Source of the DNA: Candidatus Thorarchaeota archaeon | GTDB lineage: Archaea; Asgardarchaeota; Thorarchaeia; Thorarchaeales; Thorarchaeaceae | Direction: 5' to 3' | Length of the DNA: 41,981 nucleotides | Assembly: GCA_004524445.1 (NCBI GenBank) | Contig: SDNP01000027.1 | Coordinates: 1-41,981, forward strand | Shown: positions 6,169 to 41,981 of the stretch, one piece after another | Layout of the letters: the number at the start of each line of letters is the position of its first letter | Position numbering within the stretch: position 1 is the stretch's first letter | The notes under the pieces: generated by a model | The model's input: only the letters and a program-made list of their open reading frames with translations | What the model was told of the DNA's origin: nothing | The model's database searches: none | Program-made: the position numbers and the translations under genes

Positions 6169-6318
6169 TAATATTTCACCATTGACACTCTCGGTAGGAC
6201 CTCTAACCCCTTACAAGGAATTCGATTAAGTCATTGGGATTGAAGCAAAGAGTGTCGGTTGGTGTGACGAAAGATAGAAGTGTATGTGCTAAGGAAGACC
6301 TAGTGAGGTAGACAACCA

Positions 6319-6993
6319 ATGGAAATTACCTATCTTGGTCATTCCGCGTTTAAGATTGAAGCAGATGGAAAGATAATCTTCCTTGACCCTTGGTTAGGTG
6401 GTCCTGCATCCCCTATGACTGTGGACTCGGTGGACGATGCTGATATATGCCTAGTAACGCACGACCACGGCGATCATGGGTATTCAGAAGCAGTTGAAAT
6501 CTGTAAGAAGACCGGGGCATATTTTGTTGCCATAAATGAATTGGCTCTCAAGGCAAAATCAGCAGGCGTGGAAAATGTCCATACATTAAACATCGGAGGA
6601 AGTATTGACATAAATGGTGTAGTCGTTACATTAGTGCAAGCCTTTCATTCCTGTAAAATAGGCTCACCCACTGGTTTTATCATCCAGCTTGACTCCGGTA
6701 CTGTTTACCATGCTGGGGACACGGGCATTTTCTATGATATGAAACTCTTCGGAGATATGTATGATATTGATATTGCAATGTTGCCAATAGGATCTTACTA
6801 TACAATGTCAATAAAACAAGCTTCTAAGGCAACTAGTTTGATCCGTCCGAAAGCAGTAATTCCAATGCATTACAATACATTTCCAGTCATTGAGACTGAC
6901 CCTGAAGAATTCCGGAAATTAGTATCAAAAGAATCACCTGAAAGTAAGGTAGAAGTTTTCGACATTGGCGACACGAGAGATATCGCTCTGTAA
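6319..6993 (+). CDS. Metallo-beta-lactamase fold hydrolase (UPF0173-like)
   Basis: YLGHS, THDHGDH, YHAGDT, LPIG, PMHYNTF. Confidence 0.9.
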   Translation: MEITYLGHSAFKIEADGKIIFLDPWLGGPASPMTVDSVDDADICLVTHDHGDHGYSEAVEICKKTGAYFVAINELALKAKSAGVENVHTLNIGGSIDINGVVVTLVQAFHSCKIGSPTGFIIQLDSGTVYHAGDTGIFYDMKLFGDMYDIDIAMLPIGSYYTMSIKQASKATSLIRPKAVIPMHYNTFPVIETDPEEFRKLVSKESPESKVEVFDIGDTRDIAL

Positions 6994-7021
6994 GCGACTA
7001 GTACACCCGTAAAAATAAAGT

Positions 7022-7123
7022 GGTCGATGCCTGTATCCCAGCACACTAACTCCCAGAATCACAGCATCGGAGTGTATCCGGCTCCTCTGAGCTGTCTCGT
7101 GTCGGGTGAATAAAGCATCGACC
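7022..7123 (-). ncRNA. Putative ~100-nt structured small RNA
   Basis: Terminal stem GGUCGAUGC/GCAUCGACC extended by G-U pairs on the minus strand, internal hairpins GCUC/GAGC and CGGA/UCCG, followed by TTTATTTTT. Confidence 0.45.
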
Positions 7124-7220
7124 TACCCGCCAATGTGCGAGGTCTGGGTGACCTACAAATCATCTACGGAGCAATGCCCCTTATCATATAGGTCCGTTTT
7201 ACCTCACTATATTGGTATTT

Positions 7221-7328
7221 GGCAGGCTATCATCTAGGCTGTGTCCCATTCCTTGCGCAACACCTCATCGATCGAGTCTCAGTGCGCCCTCGTGAATGGG
7301 TAATTTCTCCTAGACAGATTATCCTGCT
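7221..7328. ncRNA. Putative long interrupted-hairpin small RNA
   Basis: Nested helices GCAGG/CCTGC, TCTAGG/CCTAGA, CCCATTC/GAATGGG and GCGCA/TGCGC in an intergenic region. Confidence 0.45.
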
Positions 7329-7735
7329 CATTTCTTTTTATTAGCATTGTCACACGACAAAGAGGGACACGTGAGTTACTTTGGTAATCATTCAAATGGC
7401 GACAGCGACATCTTCAAAAGGAATAATGACTGAATGGCCCGCAGGACAGAGTCGACCAATATCGATTAGGTCCATAAAATCATCAAATCATAAACGCCGT
7501 GGAAAACCACCGGTAAATATCGAGTACATGTGGAATAATTATCATCACTCATAACTTGAGATTATCATCATCACATACTCATCACATCACGATTATCACA
7601 AACACACGTCAGAAATGGTACAAAATCGTTTCCAAGCGAAGTTAGGTCAAATAGACCCGAGTATTCAGACTCGTAGAAGAAGAATCACATGTGAGTGAAC
7701 TCGGTACAAGGTGGGGAGAACGGCACACATAGGAG

Positions 7736-19813: not shown

Positions 19814-20107
19814 ATGAAAATTGAAGTACTCCAAGAAATCCAAAACAAACCTCTTGGAAGAAAGGAAGTTGAGTTCAGGCTTGAACACAGAGGGAGTACT
19901 ACCCCTAGCAGAGATGATGTTCACAGCAAGATTGTGGCCCAATATGATGCAGATCCCTCCGCTGTTGTGATCAAAGTACTGAACACAAAGTTTGGGGCAG
20001 GTATTTCCACGGGAGAAGCAAGGATATATGAGGACCCCAAACAGATGAAAAAGGTTGAACTCAAACATATCATTGACAGGCATGCCGGCCATAAGGCAGA
20101 GGAGTAG
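19814..20107 (+). CDS. rps24e: 30S ribosomal protein eS24
   Basis: NKPLGRKEV, TPSR, TKFG, ARIY; start moved to MKIEV. Confidence 0.93.
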   Translation: MKIEVLQEIQNKPLGRKEVEFRLEHRGSTTPSRDDVHSKIVAQYDADPSAVVIKVLNTKFGAGISTGEARIYEDPKQMKKVELKHIIDRHAGHKAEE

Positions 20108-34489: not shown

Positions 34490-34690
34490 ATCTTCACACC
34501 GCTGAATACTAGTGCAAACTATGATTTAGACTTTTCCAGAGAACCCTTGGGACTGGGAGATGTTATTTACCCTCCATGGCACGAAGAAACTGCTCTGCAC
34601 ACTGCAAAAACTGATAAATTCGATTACGCAATGATAAGATGATTGGCTCATCATGCTGAGACGGGGGCGATTCTAATAGAGCAGAAGGCT

Positions 34691-35173
34691 ATGACCGATA
34701 AACATCCGATACCGGTTTCCCTTGTCCTGATACTATTTTTGCTGATTCTAATCTTCATCCTTCCAATTGCGATGCAAATCCATTATCCAAATGTAAACAT
34801 CATGGCTGTGACTTGGATATGGTTCTATGACCTGGAATCGTTTGCTTGGTCAATCGTGATATGGCAATTTTCCACATGGGGCGTAGGACTTGTCTGGAGT
34901 TTCTCTAGGTTTGTCTTCATTTTCCAAATTGGTCGTTATTTTGCAGGAAAGACAACAAAGACACGTACCCTAGCGCTCGGTTTTCTTGCTGAACTACAAA
35001 TGGCTATCCCCTATTATGGTATTATGATTCATTCCGTTGTCCTGCATGGCTTTGTTCCCTATTCCTTTCTCCTCCCAACTCCGATTTTTCTGGTCATTGG
35101 CTGGCTGTTCATGCGAATTCACCCTCCGGAAAAGTATGAACAAACATTAGATTGGCTCGATCAACCGAGATAG
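34691..35173 (+). CDS. Hypothetical multi-pass membrane protein
   Basis: Several hydrophobic helices; start moved to MTDKH (track ORF starts at 34643). Confidence 0.65.
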   Translation: MTDKHPIPVSLVLILFLLILIFILPIAMQIHYPNVNIMAVTWIWFYDLESFAWSIVIWQFSTWGVGLVWSFSRFVFIFQIGRYFAGKTTKTRTLALGFLAELQMAIPYYGIMIHSVVLHGFVPYSFLLPTPIFLVIGWLFMRIHPPEKYEQTLDWLDQPR

Positions 35174-35202
35174 ATTCTGAGTATTCAAGCAACGAAAAAG
35201 GA

Positions 35203-35575
35203 CTAGAGTCGAATCGGGTTCGGTCCAATCTCTCGGATCTTCGCAGCAAAGTCGTTGATGTGTTTGGCGAACAAATCTCCCTCAGCCGCGCTGACGAACA
35301 CCATCTTCACTCGCTCCTTATTCATGCCCAGCTTATCGACCAACTCCCTGGCGAACCGCACTCGTCGTTCGGCCCCGAGGTTACCGGTCTTGTACGCACA
35401 ATCACCCGGGTGACAACCCACCACTAGCACACCGTCAGCACCTTCCTGCAGCGCTTTCATGATGAAGTTGATATCCATTCTCGCCGTGCACGGCATCCGG
35501 ATGATCCGCGCGCTCACGTCGTACTGCAACTTCATAGTTCCCGCTAGGTCCGATGCGGCGTACATGCACTGCATG
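35203..35575 (-). pseudogene. mvhD: 5'-truncated copy of hydrogenase iron-sulfur subunit MvhD
   Basis: Two aa differences from 37006..37422; lacks the first 15 aa including the first Cys of GCMQC; homology stops at 35575. Confidence 0.85.
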
Positions 35576-35583
35576 GTGGATTG

Positions 35584-36099
35584 CTAGTCACTCAGGTTCT
35601 TTGCAATAGATATTGCGCGCCTATAGACCTTTGAATCCAACCTGAATCCCAAATCAAGCATCCTATCGAGAATAGTTATGAACTCGTCATGTTGCAGTAT
35701 AGATTTGGATACGGCCTGGAGAAGGACACCAACAGTTCCCAGACATGTCACCCTCAGAATTTTTGCAGCACTTCTTCCCAACTTGTCGTCTATCAGGAGT
35801 AGACCATCCTCCTCCCTAGCCAGTAAGATAGCTGCAGCCTCCCCACTCTCAATCCCTGCGCTCTCGGCTAACTGATTCACTTCTTTATGAGCTGAATCTT
35901 CAACACCTAGCCATCCATCGTCCACTGCAGAAGCTATCAATAGTGCATCTGGCGACTCCTTAGACCCAGAAGTCTCTTGGAAGACTTTTCTCGGAATCAG
36001 AAGCTCGGTGTAGAGCTCCCTGAGCAGATGAAGTCGCCCAGCTTTAGCCAAGTAGATCAGCGGGCTTGCGTTACTGACCACTCTGATTTTCTTTGACAA
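35584..36099 (-). CDS. PIN domain toxin, DUF3368 family (start uncertain, 36099 or 36081)
   Basis: VSNASPLIYL, GEAAAI, LIDDKLGR, GTVGVL; overlaps the upstream antitoxin. Confidence 0.85.
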   Translation of the reverse strand: MSKKIRVVSNASPLIYLAKAGRLHLLRELYTELLIPRKVFQETSGSKESPDALLIASAVDDGWLGVEDSAHKEVNQLAESAGIESGEAAAILLAREEDGLLLIDDKLGRSAAKILRVTCLGTVGVLLQAVSKSILQHDEFITILDRMLDLGFRLDSKVYRRAISIAKNLSD

Positions 36100-36388
36100 G
36101 AGCAAGATCACGCTCCAAGTCCTCTTCATCATACGAGATGGGTATTGCGGCCTTATCCGCCTCCTCCATCATTTTTCTCAAGGGCATCCCCGCCATGGAT
36201 GCCGCTCTCCAGAGAGAGACCCTTCTCTCCCTGTATGCCTTGAGTGCTCTCTCCAAGAGAAACTGCTGAATGCCAATATCCAGTGCCCGTCGAATCATCT
36301 CCGATCTGTCAATGTGCTCCTCCTTGGCGATGAACTCCAGTTTCTTGATCATCTCATCGGGCAGTCGTGCTGTGACTGTCTCCATCAT
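36071..36388 (-). CDS. Antitoxin, RHH plus UPF0175 family
   Basis: TVTARLP...RSEMIRRAL RHH; VSLWRAASMAG; DLERDL. Confidence 0.85.
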   Translation of the reverse strand: MMETVTARLPDEMIKKLEFIAKEEHIDRSEMIRRALDIGIQQFLLERALKAYRERRVSLWRAASMAGMPLRKMMEEADKAAIPISYDEEDLERDLALVKENQSGQ

Positions 36389-36558
36389 CTATCGTATACA
36401 ATATATTATATTGTACACATAAGGATTTCTCTCCCTTTACTCAATCACATCCGTCAGTCAAAGAAGCCAATAGCCTCAATGCGTTGCCTCCCTTTCATTT
36501 CTATCGTAGGACTAGAAGGTGAAAACCACAAATAGCATTCAGTATCATCTTAGAAGAG

Positions 36559-37002
36559 GTGGATATAGTGAATATTCGTCCCTTCACTCCGGAGGATATC
36601 ACCCAGATTATTTCACTCACAAATGAGTATGCATCATTTGATTCCGATGTGACTGCAGCTGATTTTTCCTCTGCCCACGCCTTTCCTCAAGGCCTACTTG
36701 TGGCCGAAGCAGCCGGTCGTATTGTGGCATTCATATTTGGCTATATCAAAGAAGTACCAGGTACCATTCTCAATCGCTGGAATGCACAAAAAGCAGCTCA
36801 GATTAACCTCTTGGTAGTTGAACCGCCCTATCGGCGACAAGGTACCGGAGAGACATTGATGCGCAAGTTAGAAGATGCCTTCCGAGAAGAAGATGTGGAC
36901 CTAATTTTGCTTCACTGTCCCGCAGAAGCCACCGAGGCAAAACACCTCTATGACAAACTTGGTTTTGAGGTCCGTGCCTATGCCATGAAGAAACGCCTCT
37001 AA
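36559..37002 (+). CDS. GNAT family N-acetyltransferase
   Basis: VEPPYRRQGTGETLM, AKHLYDKLGF. Confidence 0.9.
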   Translation: MDIVNIRPFTPEDITQIISLTNEYASFDSDVTAADFSSAHAFPQGLLVAEAAGRIVAFIFGYIKEVPGTILNRWNAQKAAQINLLVVEPPYRRQGTGETLMRKLEDAFREEDVDLILLHCPAEATEAKHLYDKLGFEVRAYAMKKRL

Positions 37003-37005
37003 TCT

Positions 37006-37422
37006 CTAGAGCCGTATGGGGTTCGGCCCTATCTCCCGAATTTTCTCTGCAAAATCATTGATGTGCTTGGCAAACAAATCACCCTCAGCCGCGCTCACAA
37101 AGACCATCTTCACCCGCTCTTTATTCATGCCCAGCTTGTCAACCAATTCTCTCGCGAACCGTACTCGCCTCTCTGCTCCCAGATTCCCCGTCTTGTACGC
37201 ACAATCGCCAGGATGGCAACCAACAATCAAAACCCCGTCCGCCCCCTCTTGTAACGCCTTCATGATGAAGTTGATATCCATTCTCGCCGTGCACGGCATC
37301 CGGATGATCCGCGCGCTCACGTCGTACTGCAACTTCATGGTTCCTGCGAGATCGGATGCGGCGTACATGCACTGCATGCATCCCATGACGATGATGTTCA
37401 TATCTTTTGGAGGCATTGACAA
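37006..37422 (-). CDS. mvhD: Hydrogenase iron-sulfur subunit MvhD (full length)
   Basis: GCMQC, MPCTAR, GADGV...GCHPGDC, VSAAEG, GPNP. Confidence 0.93.
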   Translation of the reverse strand: MSMPPKDMNIIVMGCMQCMYAASDLAGTMKLQYDVSARIIRMPCTARMDINFIMKALQEGADGVLIVGCHPGDCAYKTGNLGAERRVRFARELVDKLGMNKERVKMVFVSAAEGDLFAKHINDFAEKIREIGPNPIRL

Positions 37423-37482
37423 TAACCATCCGTTGAGGGTAGAAATCAGCCTGCTGTTACTGACATATAATCTTTCAGATAG

Positions 37483-37911
37483 CTATTCTTCTGTCCGACC
37501 TTGTTCGTATAGCCATTCAGATAAGGATTCAACACCTTGTTCCGATAGCCTATAACCATCATCACACTCCTCAAAATATTGACTGTAATTGCCACGTGTT
37601 CCTGAAAACCACAAACTAACAGTTGATTGGTCTTTGCCAATTTCAGAAGCTATCGTGGTACCTGTTTTGCAGCTAGGATAGCAATCAAGGAGAGATAATA
37701 TCATTCCATTTCCTGTATTGACTTTGCTTGAAACTCTTCGCCCCTCTTCATCTTCTATCCAGTATGCTGAGGCTCGTTCCATCAGAGATTGGGCCAGTAG
37801 CCTGATTCTATTTCTAGTCTTGATTCTCTCTAGTTCAGATTTGGCATTTATCAGCTCAAGATATGCAGCCTCTAAGTCGGATATTTCCCGCGCTTGTACT
37901 TCAAGCTCCAA
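37483..37911 (-). CDS. Winged-HTH domain protein
   Basis: TIASEIGKDQSTVSLWF HTH, GYRLSEQG wing, N-terminal coiled coil. Confidence 0.65.
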   Translation of the reverse strand: MELEVQAREISDLEAAYLELINAKSELERIKTRNRIRLLAQSLMERASAYWIEDEEGRRVSSKVNTGNGMILSLLDCYPSCKTGTTIASEIGKDQSTVSLWFSGTRGNYSQYFEECDDGYRLSEQGVESLSEWLYEQGRTEE

Positions 37912-37982
37912 TTCCTCATCTCTAAACCTTAGAGTAATCTTGCGTTCATTCTCACCTATGAATACTCACCCAAAACAGAAAA

Positions 37983-38410
37983 ACCCTCTACATCTTATCT
38001 ATGCTTTGCAGCGCATAGTTTGACCTTCTGTAACCACTTGTGCTAATGTGATTGGCTGCATGCACCGACCCGAATCAGGTCTGTGTAGAGGGTGAGTGAA
38101 CCCCCTCAGTGACCGTCAACTCCCGTGTTCCACCCTGCTCGCGACTGCTGTCACCAGCGAGCGCGGGGACCTCTCCCCGAGCCTGTACACGAGCTTTATC
38201 CGAGCGGGCCTCGGATGGAGCTTCACTCCGCTGCACCCTATTGCCATGACTATCAGTAGCCTTGTGGGCGTCGATGGCGGCAGACGGCTGTTCCACGGTT
38301 CTTTCCACGGCAGGGTCGGTAGTGCTCACAAACTCTGCAAGCAGGGCCTGGTCATGGCACTCGGCCGCGGACCGTCCCCGTGAAGCTGATCTCTTCGAGG
38401 ACGGTTCGGA
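37983..38410 (-). ncRNA. Putative omegaRNA-like scaffold overlapping and following the TnpB 3' end
   Basis: Dense hairpins (CCGTCC/GGACGG, ATCCGAG/CTCGGAT, CGGGGA/TCCCCG, GCTCGC/GCGAGC, CTATGC/GCATAG), closing helix ACCCTCTACA/TGTAGAGGGT, then a U-run. Confidence 0.6.
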
Positions 38411-39859
38411 CTTCTCGTTAGAGCGTGTTCTCCTTCGAGCCTTCAAGCTTGCCTGTTTCTTCTCATGAGGAAACAACCAACGCTCTAGTCCGCTCTCATT
38501 CGCAAGTGAAGGAATGAGCTTGATGAGGCGCCGGGCGATATTGATGGCGCCGTTCTTGTCGGCATTGGAGCGATAACCGCAGGTGGGGCAGATGAAGAGG
38601 GACTGCTTGGGTCTGACCCCCTTGGAGCCACACCGGTGGCAGGTGATGGAGGTCCAGGACTCAGGAACAGGAACAAAGTGTGAACCCTTCCCATTTACCC
38701 TCCAGCCCTCCTGGACAAGAGTGTGCCTGAGTCCCTCGCTAACTCGCGCAAAGGTCCAGCGAGCAACTTTCTTTCTGAAGGACTTCCGCTTACCACTCTT
38801 TCTTCCTGCGCTACGGCGGATATGGGTGAGGCGACCGATGGCCACATACAGATTATACTTCTTTGAGAGCTCGAGGATGTGGTCAGTGAGCTCTCGAACA
38901 AGCACACCATCATAGTCGGTGCTGATGTTGGCACGGCGACTTCGAAGTTCCTTGAGCCGCTCGGCTACACCATCATATACTACACCAGCATTTTTTCGGT
39001 CACACATCTCCCGCTGCAGAGCATCTACCATCCCATCGTACCGTTCTATCTGACTAGCCTTGTCCGGTTGCGTGAAGTAGCGTACATACCTCACCCGTTG
39101 TTCAGTCAACACAACAGAACAGACCGCCTTGTCAATCCCAAGATCGATGCCCATGACTGCCGGAGGCAGACCGGTCATGTCAACCACCTCCACCTCCACT
39201 CTCACAGCAAACACAACCCACCATTTACGACGGACGTCCTTGAAGAGCCTCAGGGATGTCACCTCCCCCTCATCCAACCTGTTCAGATGGTAGGAAGAGG
39301 GAGTCAAAGGAATGAGCAATCTGTCATGAGTCCAGCTATCAGTCCGCGCCGAGTCCAAGGAGTCTAACAAATCAAGCCAATATTTTGTCTCCTGGCCCGG
39401 TCGGTACTCCAGTTTGAATCTTCTAGCATATACATACCGAGGCAGCTTTCGCTCCCGATATCCTTCTGACTTGAGGGGCGGCTGTCCATCCAATTCCAAG
39501 TAACTGTTCCACATAGCAACCGCAACTTGCCGACACTCCTGCAGCTCGTTGGTTGAGATGTTTGGGAATCTCTTCTTGAAGTCATGTGGAACAGATAGTC
39601 TATTCCTGGCTGGGTCTTTAAACCGCTCAGCTGTAAGGGTCAGCTTCTCCAGCGCTCCACCGTTGACCCGCTTTCGCTTCTTGCCAACAATGAGTTCTTT
39701 CTCGTGACGCGCAATGACCCCAAGAAACGCCCGGATGACTCGTGTATCCCGTCCGGTCAATCTCTCCAACCTAGACCTATCAGCATCACTCATGCAGTCC
39801 CACTTCACAGGAATTTTCACGCTGATGATTACAGTCTGGGTCTCGGGCATCGGCATCAC
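38075..39859 (-). CDS. tnpB: TnpB/Cas12f-like RNA-guided endonuclease with rearranged RuvC-II
   Basis: GIDLG (RuvC-I), VAIGRL, VPESWTS, CHRC/CPTC Zn finger, NADKNGAINIA (RuvC-III). Confidence 0.9.
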   Translation of the reverse strand: MMPMPETQTVIISVKIPVKWDCMSDADRSRLERLTGRDTRVIRAFLGVIARHEKELIVGKKRKRVNGGALEKLTLTAERFKDPARNRLSVPHDFKKRFPNISTNELQECRQVAVAMWNSYLELDGQPPLKSEGYRERKLPRYVYARRFKLEYRPGQETKYWLDLLDSLDSARTDSWTHDRLLIPLTPSSYHLNRLDEGEVTSLRLFKDVRRKWWVVFAVRVEVEVVDMTGLPPAVMGIDLGIDKAVCSVVLTEQRVRYVRYFTQPDKASQIERYDGMVDALQREMCDRKNAGVVYDGVAERLKELRSRRANISTDYDGVLVRELTDHILELSKKYNLYVAIGRLTHIRRSAGRKSGKRKSFRKKVARWTFARVSEGLRHTLVQEGWRVNGKGSHFVPVPESWTSITCHRCGSKGVRPKQSLFICPTCGYRSNADKNGAINIARRLIKLIPSLANESGLERWLFPHEKKQASLKARRRTRSNEKSEPSSKRSASRGRSAAECHDQALLAEFVSTTDPAVERTVEQPSAAIDAHKATDSHGNRVQRSEAPSEARSDKARVQARGEVPALAGDSSREQGGTRELTVTEGVHSPSTQT

Positions 39860-39864
39860 TCAAC

Positions 39865-39975
39865 GTACTTAAACTTCCGACCTGTCTTGTGTCAGAAGGG
39901 AGTTCACTCACCTCCATATCCAGCAGAGTGAATGATAACCTCCACACATTCTATATCATAATAGTACTTAAACTT
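39865..39975 (-). promoter_or_regulatory. Two identical BRE/TATA-like boxes upstream of tnpB
   Basis: AAGTTTAAGTAC at 39975-39964 and 39876-39865. Confidence 0.6.
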
Positions 39976-40103
39976 ATGAAGACTGTAGAGTTATGAACTC
40001 CTAATTTTCAATTCTAGGCACTCATATGCCTTATCTATTAAAACAGAGTAATAGTCGTAAAACCCGAGAAAGTATATATAAATAAACAATAAAAATGTAG
40101 AAT

Positions 40104-41981
40104 ATGGCTCATTTTGGGTCTCCCAAACAGCCAAACAAGGTCCTCATCACTGCCTTCAAGCGTGGGATGGCAGCGACATTGGCTCTCGCACGGGACCGTG
40201 CCATGGGAGCTGCCCGACCACTGTACTATGGGGATCACCGTGTGAAGGGCATGGCGAAGATCTGGGATGAGGCTAAGAACGCCTATCGAGAGACCCTTGA
40301 CCTGGATAAGCAGCGGAGGTCAGCCTCTTATCGACAGAGTTTCAGCCCCGACCAGCTGGAGGAGCTGGATAGGAAGGTCCTCCCTGACAGTAGACTTCTT
40401 CTAAAGGCGGAGAATAACATCCGGCGCAATTTCTACCGCATCATGTTGAAGACCGCCGTCAAATATGGCAACAAAGAGACCAAACGAGTCAAGCGTGGCG
40501 AGGGCCCACAGGGATACCTCAACCTTCTCTGGGACTACGCAGGCAGTAGAATCCGCGATGTCTGCAAGGCCCGGTACTTCTTTCCCCCGCCCACAGAGCT
40601 CAAGCTCGCAGACGGATCTGAGGGAGTAGGGTACCCTGCCCTCGGAGGACAGTCAGCATACTTGCTGAATCACGACAACCTCCCTGAACTGGACTTTGGA
40701 GACATGATACGAAGCCATCTGGTGGAGCTAGCAAGACAATGCATGAAGTACAATGTGCCTCTCAGGCCAGCCAAACGGTACATCGACCAGCTACTCAACC
40801 GGCTTCTTCCCTTTCTGGATTATGTCTACAGTGGAAGGAAGAGCGGTCGGTCCAACTTCGTGCGTGAGGGAACTGAAGAACTACGTGATGTGGTTGATAG
40901 AATCAGCATACTCTATGGCATGCGAAACGGCAGAGCTCCCTCTATCACTTCCATGGTTGCAGTCGATACAGAGGTGACACTGTCGGATGCTGATGCCCCT
41001 GTAGTTGAAGAGTATCCAGACGACCTCACTGAACCCCAATTCGAGCACACTCCTCAGACACCAGAAGAGAGTATCATAGCCTCTGATACGTCGGTCGAAG
41101 AAGATTTTGAGCAGTCAAAAAATCAGGACTTCTTCGCAACCCTTGTTGGTAGAGCGGAGGAGGAGGGTGTTGATGAGTGGAGTGATGCTCTGGATACACT
41201 CAAACAATTGTTGGATGACGGCATCTTAGATGAGGAGGACGCCGCACAGATTCTGAAACAGGCACAAGAGGAGAGCAGAAGAATCGGCAGCGCATTTCAT
41301 GACTTTGTATCAAAGGGCTTTCCCAGTCCCTTTGTGATGAGTGCAGTGGTCCATCATGGAGATGAGATGGTACAGGATAGGTCCGGCCTCCTGATAGTAT
41401 CCGAGTTGAGCGTTGCAGGAGGAAAAGGGCGAGTTGACCTCACAGTCTTCAGACGGAAACTTTTGCCAAGTGTGGATGCGACTCAACCAAAAGTCATCTA
41501 TGAACCCTGCATGGTTGTTGAGATAAAGACGAAGAGTGCTTTTGAAATCGATATCTACGGGGTGAGGTCTAAGAGTGAGAAGGAGAAGAACATTGTCAGT
41601 GAATTCCTGCTGGAGAGAAGAAGAATCACTGACAAAGAGTGGGCGGACATAAGGGCAAGCATCTCTCCCGGGAGTGTAAAACAGATTGAGCTATACCGTG
41701 AAGCCATGTTGAATGAGTATCAACGAGTGGGATGGATAGATCCGAGCCCACCAAACGAACTGATCAAAGCGGTTGTTCTGGTCGATTCAAAGGAAACGTG
41801 GAGTGCAGCTCGTGACGCATTGCATGCCCTGATTGTCGAGGGCTACGAGATGGTCATGAATAATGGAATCTCCACGGGCGACATTCTTCAGGTCAGCGAG
41901 AACGGAAGCCCGCTGAGATTAGCCATGCATATGGTATCAGATAGCTGTTCAGCCATCGAAGTTAAACCACCTGCTAAGAGA
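40104..41981 (+). CDS. Large protein (>626 aa, 3' end outside the window) with a RecB/Cas4-like PD-(D/E)XK nuclease domain
   Basis: Hand translation from ATG 40104 is open to the window end: MAHFGSPKQP...IGSAFHDF...IVSELSV..GKGRVDL...VVEIKTK...KQIELY. TATATAAA box at ~40075. Confidence 0.85.
   Translation, partial: MAHFGSPKQPNKVLITAFKRGMAATLALARDRAMGAARPLYYGDHRVKGMAKIWDEAKNAYRETLDLDKQRRSASYRQSFSPDQLEELDRKVLPDSRLLLKAENNIRRNFYRIMLKTAVKYGNKETKRVKRGEGPQGYLNLLWDYAGSRIRDVCKARYFFPPPTELKLADGSEGVGYPALGGQSAYLLNHDNLPELDFGDMIRSHLVELARQCMKYNVPLRPAKRYIDQLLNRLLPFLDYVYSGRKSGRSNFVREGTEELRDVVDRISILYGMRNGRAPSITSMVAVDTEVTLSDADAPVVEEYPDDLTEPQFEHTPQTPEESIIASDTSVEEDFEQSKNQDFFATLVGRAEEEGVDEWSDALDTLKQLLDDGILDEEDAAQILKQAQEESRRIGSAFHDFVSKGFPSPFVMSAVVHHGDEMVQDRSGLLIVSELSVAGGKGRVDLTVFRRKLLPSVDATQPKVIYEPCMVVEIKTKSAFEIDIYGVRSKSEKEKNIVSEFLLERRRITDKEWADIRASISPGSVKQIELYREAMLNEYQRVGWIDPSPPNELIKAVVLVDSKETWSAARDALHALIVEGYEMVMNNGISTGDILQVSENGSPLRLAMHMVSDSCSAIEVKPPAKR

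Follow-up and report, generated by a model that had tools for sequence, protein, structure and literature searches.

What kind of genetic unit is formed when a gene for a TnpB-like nuclease lies head to head with a very large nuclease-like gene and no TnpA transposase is in view? This question is raised by contig SDNP01000027.1 (contig C8 here; assembly GCA_004524445.1) of a Candidatus Thorarchaeota archaeon. The window analysed is this entire contig, 41,981 nucleotides long. The genome comprises 2.8 Mb, is 90% complete, and its relatives are labelled Thorarchaeota. The large gene encodes a fusion protein of the aCas1 type, a name that reportedly goes back to Makarova et al. in 2020 (CRISPR J). 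From sequence comparison, the gene pair is read here as an RNA-targeted homing element that would recurrently enter the 5' part of the host gene mvhD, with aCas1 as the joining enzyme. The probability of this reading is put at roughly 0.6.

Identity of the locus

The tnpB-like gene and an open reading frame (ORF) of 626 codons diverge from a gap of 244 bp (39860-40103, 33.6% GC), in which TATA-like boxes facing both ways can be seen by inspection (other coordinates in Table 1). The GC content of tnpB (54.7%) and of the large ORF (51.3%) exceeds the 44.7% of window positions 1-37000. These features had been pointed out in the original prediction, as had a basic N-terminus of the large product (30 K/R and 15 D/E in residues 1-135), an acidic linker (18 D/E and 3 K/R in residues 273-345) and an ordered set of RecB/Cas4-type nuclease motifs; residue counts and an alignment of 60 sequences bear all of them out. 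Also as predicted, neither a Y1 TnpA (PF01797) nor a serine resolvase or TnpA (PF00239) was found in the 90%-complete genome.

The suggestion that the element is undescribed did not hold. Altae-Tran et al. 2023 (PMC10691335) reported two Asgard groups of aCas1-associated TnpB, Cas1H-Asgard-1 and Cas1H-Asgard-2, and proposed aCas1 as the transposase. Their text also notes a GTTCACTCA motif downstream of tnpB in these loci, which are often flanked by repeats, and describes a TnpB type with a rearranged RuvC-II. The Asgard host, a diverged Cas1 fold beside TnpB, the absence of a Y1 or serine TnpA, two TnpB types and GTTCACTCA near the tnpB 3' end are all found again here. Therefore, the locus almost certainly belongs to this published family, an assignment made by features rather than by placement in an alignment. 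It is very probably a mobile element.

The TnpB protein matches Cas12f1-like_TNB of Pfam (E 2.6e-13) and guided_TnpB of NCBIfam (E 8.4e-24, below the model's cut-off). Its RuvC-II is rearranged, with D239, G342 where Glu is canonical, a relocated E400, D434 and a C4 zinc finger. Among 34 close homologs D239, G342 and E400 are present in all, and D434 in 33, with one gap.

The large protein

The large ORF very likely runs on into contig C9, giving a full protein of about 1,820 residues, because residues 634-1820 of an ortholog match the start of C9 at 81% identity in tblastn, next to residues 1-626 on C8 at 86%. This ortholog (locus L001), found at the same site in a genome of the same genus, has 1,829 residues and is 86% identical. 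No sequencing contig spanning the C8-C9 gap was seen, and the join is drawn from the ortholog.

By predicted fold and motif spacing, residues 1-260 are a Cas1 catalytic domain. In an alignment-based AlphaFold model (mean predicted local distance difference test score, pLDDT, of 84), the best 12 structural matches of this region in VIA are all Cas1 or casposase (Z 9.1-13.0), and Foldseek ranked Cas1 first, at an E of 0.02 only. Alignments to Cas1 chains begin at chain residue ~80-115, and the model opens with helices. Such Z values alone are modest for a helical domain, and the call combines predicted fold with motif conservation; it is made because the matches form one family and a Cas1-like E...H...DxxDxxR pattern is invariant. 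The predicted active-site residues E103 (40410), H190 (40671) and D200 (40701) are invariant in the aligned sequences. The Pfam family Cas_Cas1 did not detect the domain, and the large protein was not identified by sequence in Pfam, NCBIfam, PADLOC or the PDB (sequence or profile).

The part from residue ~380 to 615 matches Cas4, MGME1, AddA/B, RecB and RecE in VIA (Z 5-8). Its motifs G395xxxH399, E434, D445, E473xK475 and Q527xxxY531 follow in this order and are invariant in the 60 aligned sequences, except that position 473 is E or D. The first 240 residues encoded on C9 are modelled as a RecA/Rad51-paralog-like fold in which the Walker A lysine is missing and Walker B is degenerate. The C-terminal ~800 residues received no assignment, which is not evidence of a new fold, the domains having been folded jointly; among the assigned domains there is no match to TnsB, TnsC or TniQ. 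The original prediction had called for structural analysis of the full ORF. Its nuclease is upheld, but the Cas1 domain had been overlooked, and just one third of the protein is encoded in the window. The proposed role as mobilisation partner is likely for the large protein as a whole, which is linked to TnpB in every testable locus, and not for its RecB/Cas4 domain, since the Cas1 domain is the likelier mobilising part.

Linkage, partner exchange and ends of the element

The aCas1 family is patchily spread: of 86 Thorarchaeota genomes 49 have it, many of them in multiple copies and one with as many as 17 matches, and only 125 relatives appeared among 1.8 billion representatives searched. The loci fetched are best hits and not a random sample, and 58 distinct ones with enough upstream DNA were testable. 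A divergent TnpB is present in all 58, confirming the linked unit without TnpA. In 34 of them the TnpB is of the present type and stands head to head with aCas1, mostly 220-270 bp away; in the remaining 24 it is a longer protein of ~715 residues (20 by profile, six of these checked in NCBIfam, and four cut by contig ends). At L053, L054 and L056, the start of tnpB is 1.1-1.3 kb away from aCas1, compared with the usual 0.25 kb.

The aCas1 and TnpB trees share 5 of 31 splits, with many supported conflicts and a Mantel rho of 0.18, and no fewer than 7 changes of TnpB type are needed on the aCas1 tree (FastTree, midpoint root). The conflict of the gene trees implies that TnpB partners have been swapped, though aCas1 always keeps a TnpB. 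Judged from these trees, the pairing is architectural and not strict co-descent, and the tree congruence put forward in the original prediction as a check turned out against it.

Where related copies sit in unrelated flanks, their common DNA ends exactly at the 3' end of the TnpB-associated omega-RNA; in the other direction it runs to ~10 nt or less from the aCas1 stop. No conserved sequence past this stop was found in the 58 loci. The 3' RNA end of the ~715-residue TnpB/Cas12f-like type (L038, L040, L046, L067, L072, L087 and 18 others) is a sharp boundary as well.

A guide matching mvhD

The last ~130 codons of tnpB overlap the omega-RNA, whose scaffold end is a sharp boundary between related copies with unrelated flanks. 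The GTTCACTCA motif, present in most close loci, lies at 38101-38093 (-) on the tip of a hairpin (38101-38091), and a 16-bp inverted repeat of 94% identity flanks tnpB (38091-38106 and 39897-39912). No Rfam match was obtained. A 373-nt contig from one RNA library covers 38109-38460, a weak hint only, as the RNA runs consist of contigs of related strains and are uninformative on level, strand and ends.

Directly past the scaffold lies a guide antisense to mvhD, which is found 650 bp downstream. Guides matching mvhD occur upstream of this gene in 24 of 44 loci, where they accompany aCas1 and tnpB, accompany tnpB alone, or stand as bare RNA ends or tandem mini-guides. Two guide registers, 4 nt apart, both abut TACAT or TGCAT in many mvhD alleles, and at L119 one guide tracks the M14N change of its own mvhD. 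Filled and empty loci share the host neighbours of mvhD by synteny comparison. Displaced 5' stubs of mvhD end at codons 9-12 in five loci, and 13 truncated 3' copies, some of them not independent of one another, begin at codon 14-15; the one in the window is among them. TnpBs without aCas1 occupy the mvhD site in three genomes (L103, L112, L120), and bare guides without aCas1 occur there at L102, L125 and L126.

Five of six TnpBs of mvhD-site copies fall in one clade (support 0.999), whereas their aCas1s fall in two distant clades. This suggests that site specificity travels with TnpB and its RNA, and on these comparisons it is probably the omega guide that decides the mvhD site. At L069, an older guide adjoins the stub, and the guide of a newer element matches 11 nt of a sister-genome allele with a similar older guide, which suggests successive invasions at mvhD.

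Other copies of the element adjoin tRNA genes with guide-like matches. Partial duplications of the target gene exist at some tRNA and mvhD sites, and none was found flanking the present copy. At L092 and L082, fragments of a tRNA gene lie just past the aCas1 stop, with an intact tRNA gene on the omega-RNA side. A decayed second copy in the same genome (L034, contig C57) retains a tnpB 3' fragment and omega-RNA (1628-2250) with a guide resembling a nearby tRNA-like gene; a 504-residue ORF on that contig (7772-9286) weakly matches the C-terminal part of aCas1. Tandem mini-guides with differing synonymous variants were observed at L112, L119 and L126, the last without tnpB and 112-166 bp upstream of mvhD; they are array-like and possibly reflect guide accumulation.

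A probable second guide in the tnpB leader

All 34 loci of the short TnpB type carry two copies of a 10-17 nt sequence, made of a TFB-recognition element (BRE) and a TATA box, 90-100 bp apart in the intergenic region. Read on the tnpB strand, the upstream copy is preceded by NTNAT (TTCAT here), which resembles known target-adjacent motifs (TAMs) of TnpB. The downstream copy is preceded by GGTYRG, like the end of the omega-RNA. Identity begins exactly past these two motifs and stops at 12-15 nt. There are 32 distinct 12-mers over the 34 loci, yet they match inside each locus: the identical run averages 12.4 nt inside a locus but 2.5 nt between loci (0 of 10,000 permutations; kinship has to be kept in mind), and the non-consensus positions 10-12 are 96% identical within against 42% across loci.

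The stretch separating the two copies contains a segment with complementarity to the loop of the omega-RNA's GTTCACTCA hairpin, and the duplexes of leader and omega-RNA reach -36.7 kcal/mol within loci versus -32.8 across loci. In the window, the loop complement (39912-39902), the scaffold-like end GGTCGG (39882-39877) and a guide-like copy of the upstream promoter P1 (39876-39865) make up a leader unit that is presumably transcribed. No such repeat at 80-120 bp spacing was found for the long (~715-residue) TnpB type.

For the ISDge10 TnpB, a 10-nt guide permits binding without cutting (PMC13507860), and CRISPR effectors repress their own promoters by a partially complementary upstream guide (10.1101/2023.03.10.532045). 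The co-variation makes it likely that the leader guide is functional, and it probably serves RNA-guided autorepression of tnpB. In the literature searched, neither a leader 12-mer matching its own TAM-flanked promoter, nor an omega guide antisense to mvhD, nor guide-based self-repression by a transposon TnpB, was found.

Proposed mechanism

From these observations we infer expression of the element, binding and cutting by TnpB, repression by the leader guide and a role of aCas1 in insertion, as follows. The core, as comparison of copies shows, stretches between the 3' end of the omega-RNA and the stop codon of aCas1 and lacks terminal repeats. TnpB and its omega-RNA would find an unoccupied allele by a TACAT or TGCAT TAM with an 11-17 nt match to mvhD codons 12-16, and would open or cut the DNA there. 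The aCas1 fusion would then join DNA, the Cas4/RecB part trimming ends and the Cas1 domain joining them, while the ATPase-degenerate RecA-like domain may be a DNA-binding or assembly scaffold. At five other loci, a stub of the old mvhD 5' end is seen on the far side, and the omega-RNA is followed by a full copy that mostly mismatches the guide, which preserves the host gene. The leader guide, 12-15 nt long and able to pair with the omega-RNA loop, would send TnpB to its own promoter, causing repression without cutting. That aCas1 itself catalyses insertion at mvhD has somewhat less than even odds. The full picture is held more tentatively still: an RNA-guided integration not belonging to the Tn7 family, in which the short homing guide of an active TnpB marks one fixed site in a conserved host gene, a single Cas1-Cas4-RecA-like polypeptide performs the insertion and a leader guide self-represses.

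Several observations weigh against this homing model. The frequent partner swaps argue against a tightly co-evolved interface of TnpB and aCas1. Comparison of related copies revealed no terminal inverted repeat (TIR) and no target-site duplication (TSD), and no mvhD stub was found in this genome; a weak stub-like match on C9 was rejected as the antisense of the end of an Rce1 gene. In the predicted aCas1 model, the N-terminal beta domain is missing, the part by which Cas1 and casposase form dimers (PMC6977970). The junction at codon 14 is only 3-5 nt from the TAM. TnpB typically cuts 15-21 nt from it. Position -4 of the TAM is T in 34 of 34 promoters, as opposed to A or G at mvhD, and no clear TAM is visible at the tRNA-like targets that other copies have. 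Perfect matches of guides to the resident allele are not significantly depleted (3 of 32 against 5.1 expected, p ~0.2); the 0 of 29 for guides within 2 kb concerns a post-hoc subset. A complete escape of resident alleles from their guides, seen in the first 14 loci, was accordingly dropped, being not significant in the full set, and the excess of third-position mismatches in guide matches is partly built into the search pattern.

Alternative explanations

The main competing explanation, which we regard as unlikely but not negligible, is that TnpB cuts the unoccupied mvhD, whereupon the element and its variable cargo are copied by the host through gene conversion and one-sided end-joining, aCas1 rarely moving the unit or merely hitch-hiking. 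The variable far ends and cargo, the lack of TIR and TSD, duplicated 370-bp mvhD bodies that resemble products of one-ended repair, intact catalytic residues in TnpB, and TnpBs or bare guides persisting at mvhD without aCas1 all speak for it. It accounts poorly for the retention of TnpB and invariant active sites by every testable aCas1; moreover, the sharp codon-14 junction misfits the usual cut position of TnpB, and cutting may need longer guide matches than 11-17 nt. The shortness of the matches is a point in favour of a purely regulatory omega guide, with TnpB repressing mvhD in the manner of CRISPR interference (the guide pairs with the coding strand), like nuclease-dead TnpB derivatives, and rearrangements as a side effect: matches to the adjacent allele span 8-11 nt, the same length class as the leader guide, and guides stay beside mvhD after loss of aCas1 or tnpB. 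Nevertheless, this is very improbable, given that the DNA has been broken repeatedly at those codons, as the stubs and truncated copies attest, that the RuvC residues are intact, and that the adjacent allele is always mismatched within the first 11 nt, often with an altered TAM position.

For the leader, it might be supposed that the repeat is a duplicated promoter, or that the 16-bp inverted repeat marks the ends of a mini-transposon of tnpB only. Both copies are indeed BRE- and TATA-like and the inverted repeat is 94% identical; however, the identity covers non-consensus bases, its beginning is marked by a scaffold-like end and by a TAM-like site, and conservation continues for ~30 nt outside either arm of the inverted repeat, leaving this explanation improbable. 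Finally, the original prediction also entertained a module for defence or guide acquisition, with the RecB/Cas4-like protein as the resecting enzyme or the source of TnpB guides and with no integrase involved. Cas1 and Cas4 do form a spacer-acquisition pair, and the tandem mini-guides upstream of mvhD in L112, L119 and L126 could be taken as acquired. Yet traceable guides match host genes beside the element and not foreign DNA, the Cas1 domain is intact, and the insertion pattern is multicopy. There is no CRISPR repeat array in window 34500-41981 or in a self-comparison of the joined C8-C9 locus, and no PADLOC match for the large ORF. This role is hence the least probable of those considered, and the homing model is preferred.

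Comparison with known systems

Within its own family, the present locus differs from the published description in one respect: PMC10691335 proposes the variable stretch before GTTCACTCA as the guide, while here this stretch is a hairpin arm and the guide lies ~30 nt later. The main text of that paper is silent on partner swapping, on any guide in the leader and on a host gene as fixed target. With casposons (M. mazei casposase, 6OPM, Z 11.1), the element shares the Cas1-fold domain, the E/H/acidic triad and a stand-alone Cas1 in a mobile element, and some aCas1 copies lie at tRNA genes. Unlike casposons, it has no N-terminal beta domain, TIRs, TSD or polymerase gene in its core, and it has fused Cas4 and RecA-like domains and an obligatory TnpB. 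The core consists of two genes, and the flanking ORFs here and at L001 and L002 belong to families other than family B DNA polymerase, a profile search of all loci not having been made. Since no conserved sequence past the stop, no TIR and no TSD was found, the element is not a casposon by definition; casposons carry TIRs and a TSD of 14-15 bp.

As in IS200/IS605 and IS607, the omega-RNA overlaps the tnpB 3' end and the boundary of scaffold and guide is at the edge of the conserved unit. In contrast to them, there is no TnpA, the scaffold measures ~400 nt, a probable second guide is present in the leader, and for this clade the match of the omega guide to one fixed host gene, inverted and at a distance of 100-700 bp, is maintained. 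CRISPR-associated transposons (CASTs) of type V-K that home by truncated, separately encoded crRNAs (PMC11406308) likewise use a short guide to a conserved attachment site, a tRNA or other conserved gene; however, CASTs combine Tn7 TnsB/TnsC/TniQ with nuclease-dead Cas12k, and here a TnpB with catalytic residues is combined with a Cas1-family fusion. A guide upstream of the effector and matching its promoter is also known from CreR and crRNA-like autorepression (10.1101/2023.03.10.532045) and the long tracrRNA of Cas9 (10.1101/2020.05.21.102756). Those cases concern the CRISPR effectors of types I-B, I-E and V-A and Cas9, and here a transposon TnpB is involved. Unlike type V CRISPR (Cas12f), no CRISPR array adjoins tnpB.

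Other features of the locus

The features are collected in Table 1. The 142-residue ORF between the guide and mvhD is also found upstream of mvhD in L035 and L113. The two mvhD copies (35203-37422) lie 1,803 bp apart. Many Thorarchaeota have similar cassettes that end in a codon-14-truncated mvhD, reminiscent of a hotspot with an array of cargo. At L001, the cargo between mvhD copies includes a deaminase-domain protein (6228-7364), a possible defence gene. Over window 35550-38087, contigs of co-occurring strains (runs X1 and X2) join the omega-RNA end to mvhD without the 142-residue ORF or the cassette; they represent present-day variation of the site, and joints of 85% likeness may derive from other organisms.

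After aCas1, L033 (3656-7758) encodes a DUF3160 protein, a small helix-turn-helix-like protein and an Rce1-like protease, unlike the ortholog locus, and these genes are likely variable cargo. At L001, an 83-bp internal omega-RNA fragment (19849-19931), 95% identical to its own omega-RNA, lies 4.4 kb past the aCas1 stop and adjoins a truncated DUF3160 gene. A 69-bp periodic repeat in L067, GTTCACTG, was considered as a mini-array and rejected, as it lies inside the reading frame of a repeat protein.

Table 1. Features of the aCas1-TnpB locus (window coordinates unless a contig is named)
Feature	Position	Strand	Basis or remark
5'-truncated mvhD copy, from codon 14	35203-35574	-	84% identical to full copy
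Cargo between mvhD copies: GNAT acetyltransferase (+); ribbon-helix-helix (RHH)/UPF0175 antitoxin and PIN/DUF3368 toxin-like gene (-)	35584-37002	+/-	
Full-length mvhD (FlpD) copy	37006-37422	-	sequence
Guide-matching site in mvhD	37373-37383	+	one mismatch, at guide position 9; TGCAC in TAM position 37368-37372
142-aa ORF, variable passenger, between guide and mvhD	37483-37911	-	family search unconvincing
Omega-RNA guide, antisense to mvhD codons 12-15	38051-38064	-	sequence match
Omega-RNA scaffold	38065-38460	-	conservation, sharp boundary; 3' end 38065, 5' limit approximate
tnpB-like ORF, 594 aa	38075-39859	-	Pfam and NCBIfam profile matches
tnpB leader RNA unit, predicted	39865-39947	-	hairpins; layout conserved in 34 loci
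Upstream tnpB promoter P1	39964-39980	-	TAM-like TTCAT (39980-39976) and 12-nt BRE/TATA (39975-39964)
BRE/TATA-like aCas1 promoter	40068-40083	+	consensus match only
aCas1 fusion gene, 5' third (626 of ~1,820 codons)	40104-41981	+	open at window end
Predicted Cas1 catalytic alpha-helical domain, aa 1-260	40104-40883	+	AlphaFold model, VIA matches
Cas4/RecB-type PD-(D/E)XK nuclease, aa ~380-615	41241-41948	+	VIA, motifs
Rest of aCas1 gene, putative	contig C9, 2-3586 (L033)		tblastn with L001; after ~21-nt gap

Implications

As the gene pair has already been catalogued, the claim of a new module adds little. For the aCas1-TnpB family, no experimental data were found in the literature searched, and the present locus supplies predicted guides, TAMs, targets and catalytic mutants for it. 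According to a 2024 review (PMC11406308), CRISPR systems have been co-opted for guided transposition by Tn7-like elements only. If the reading given here is true, a Cas1-family integrase guided by TnpB would represent an independent route to guided transposition, and it would bear on how CRISPR adaptation arose and on compact tools for DNA insertion.

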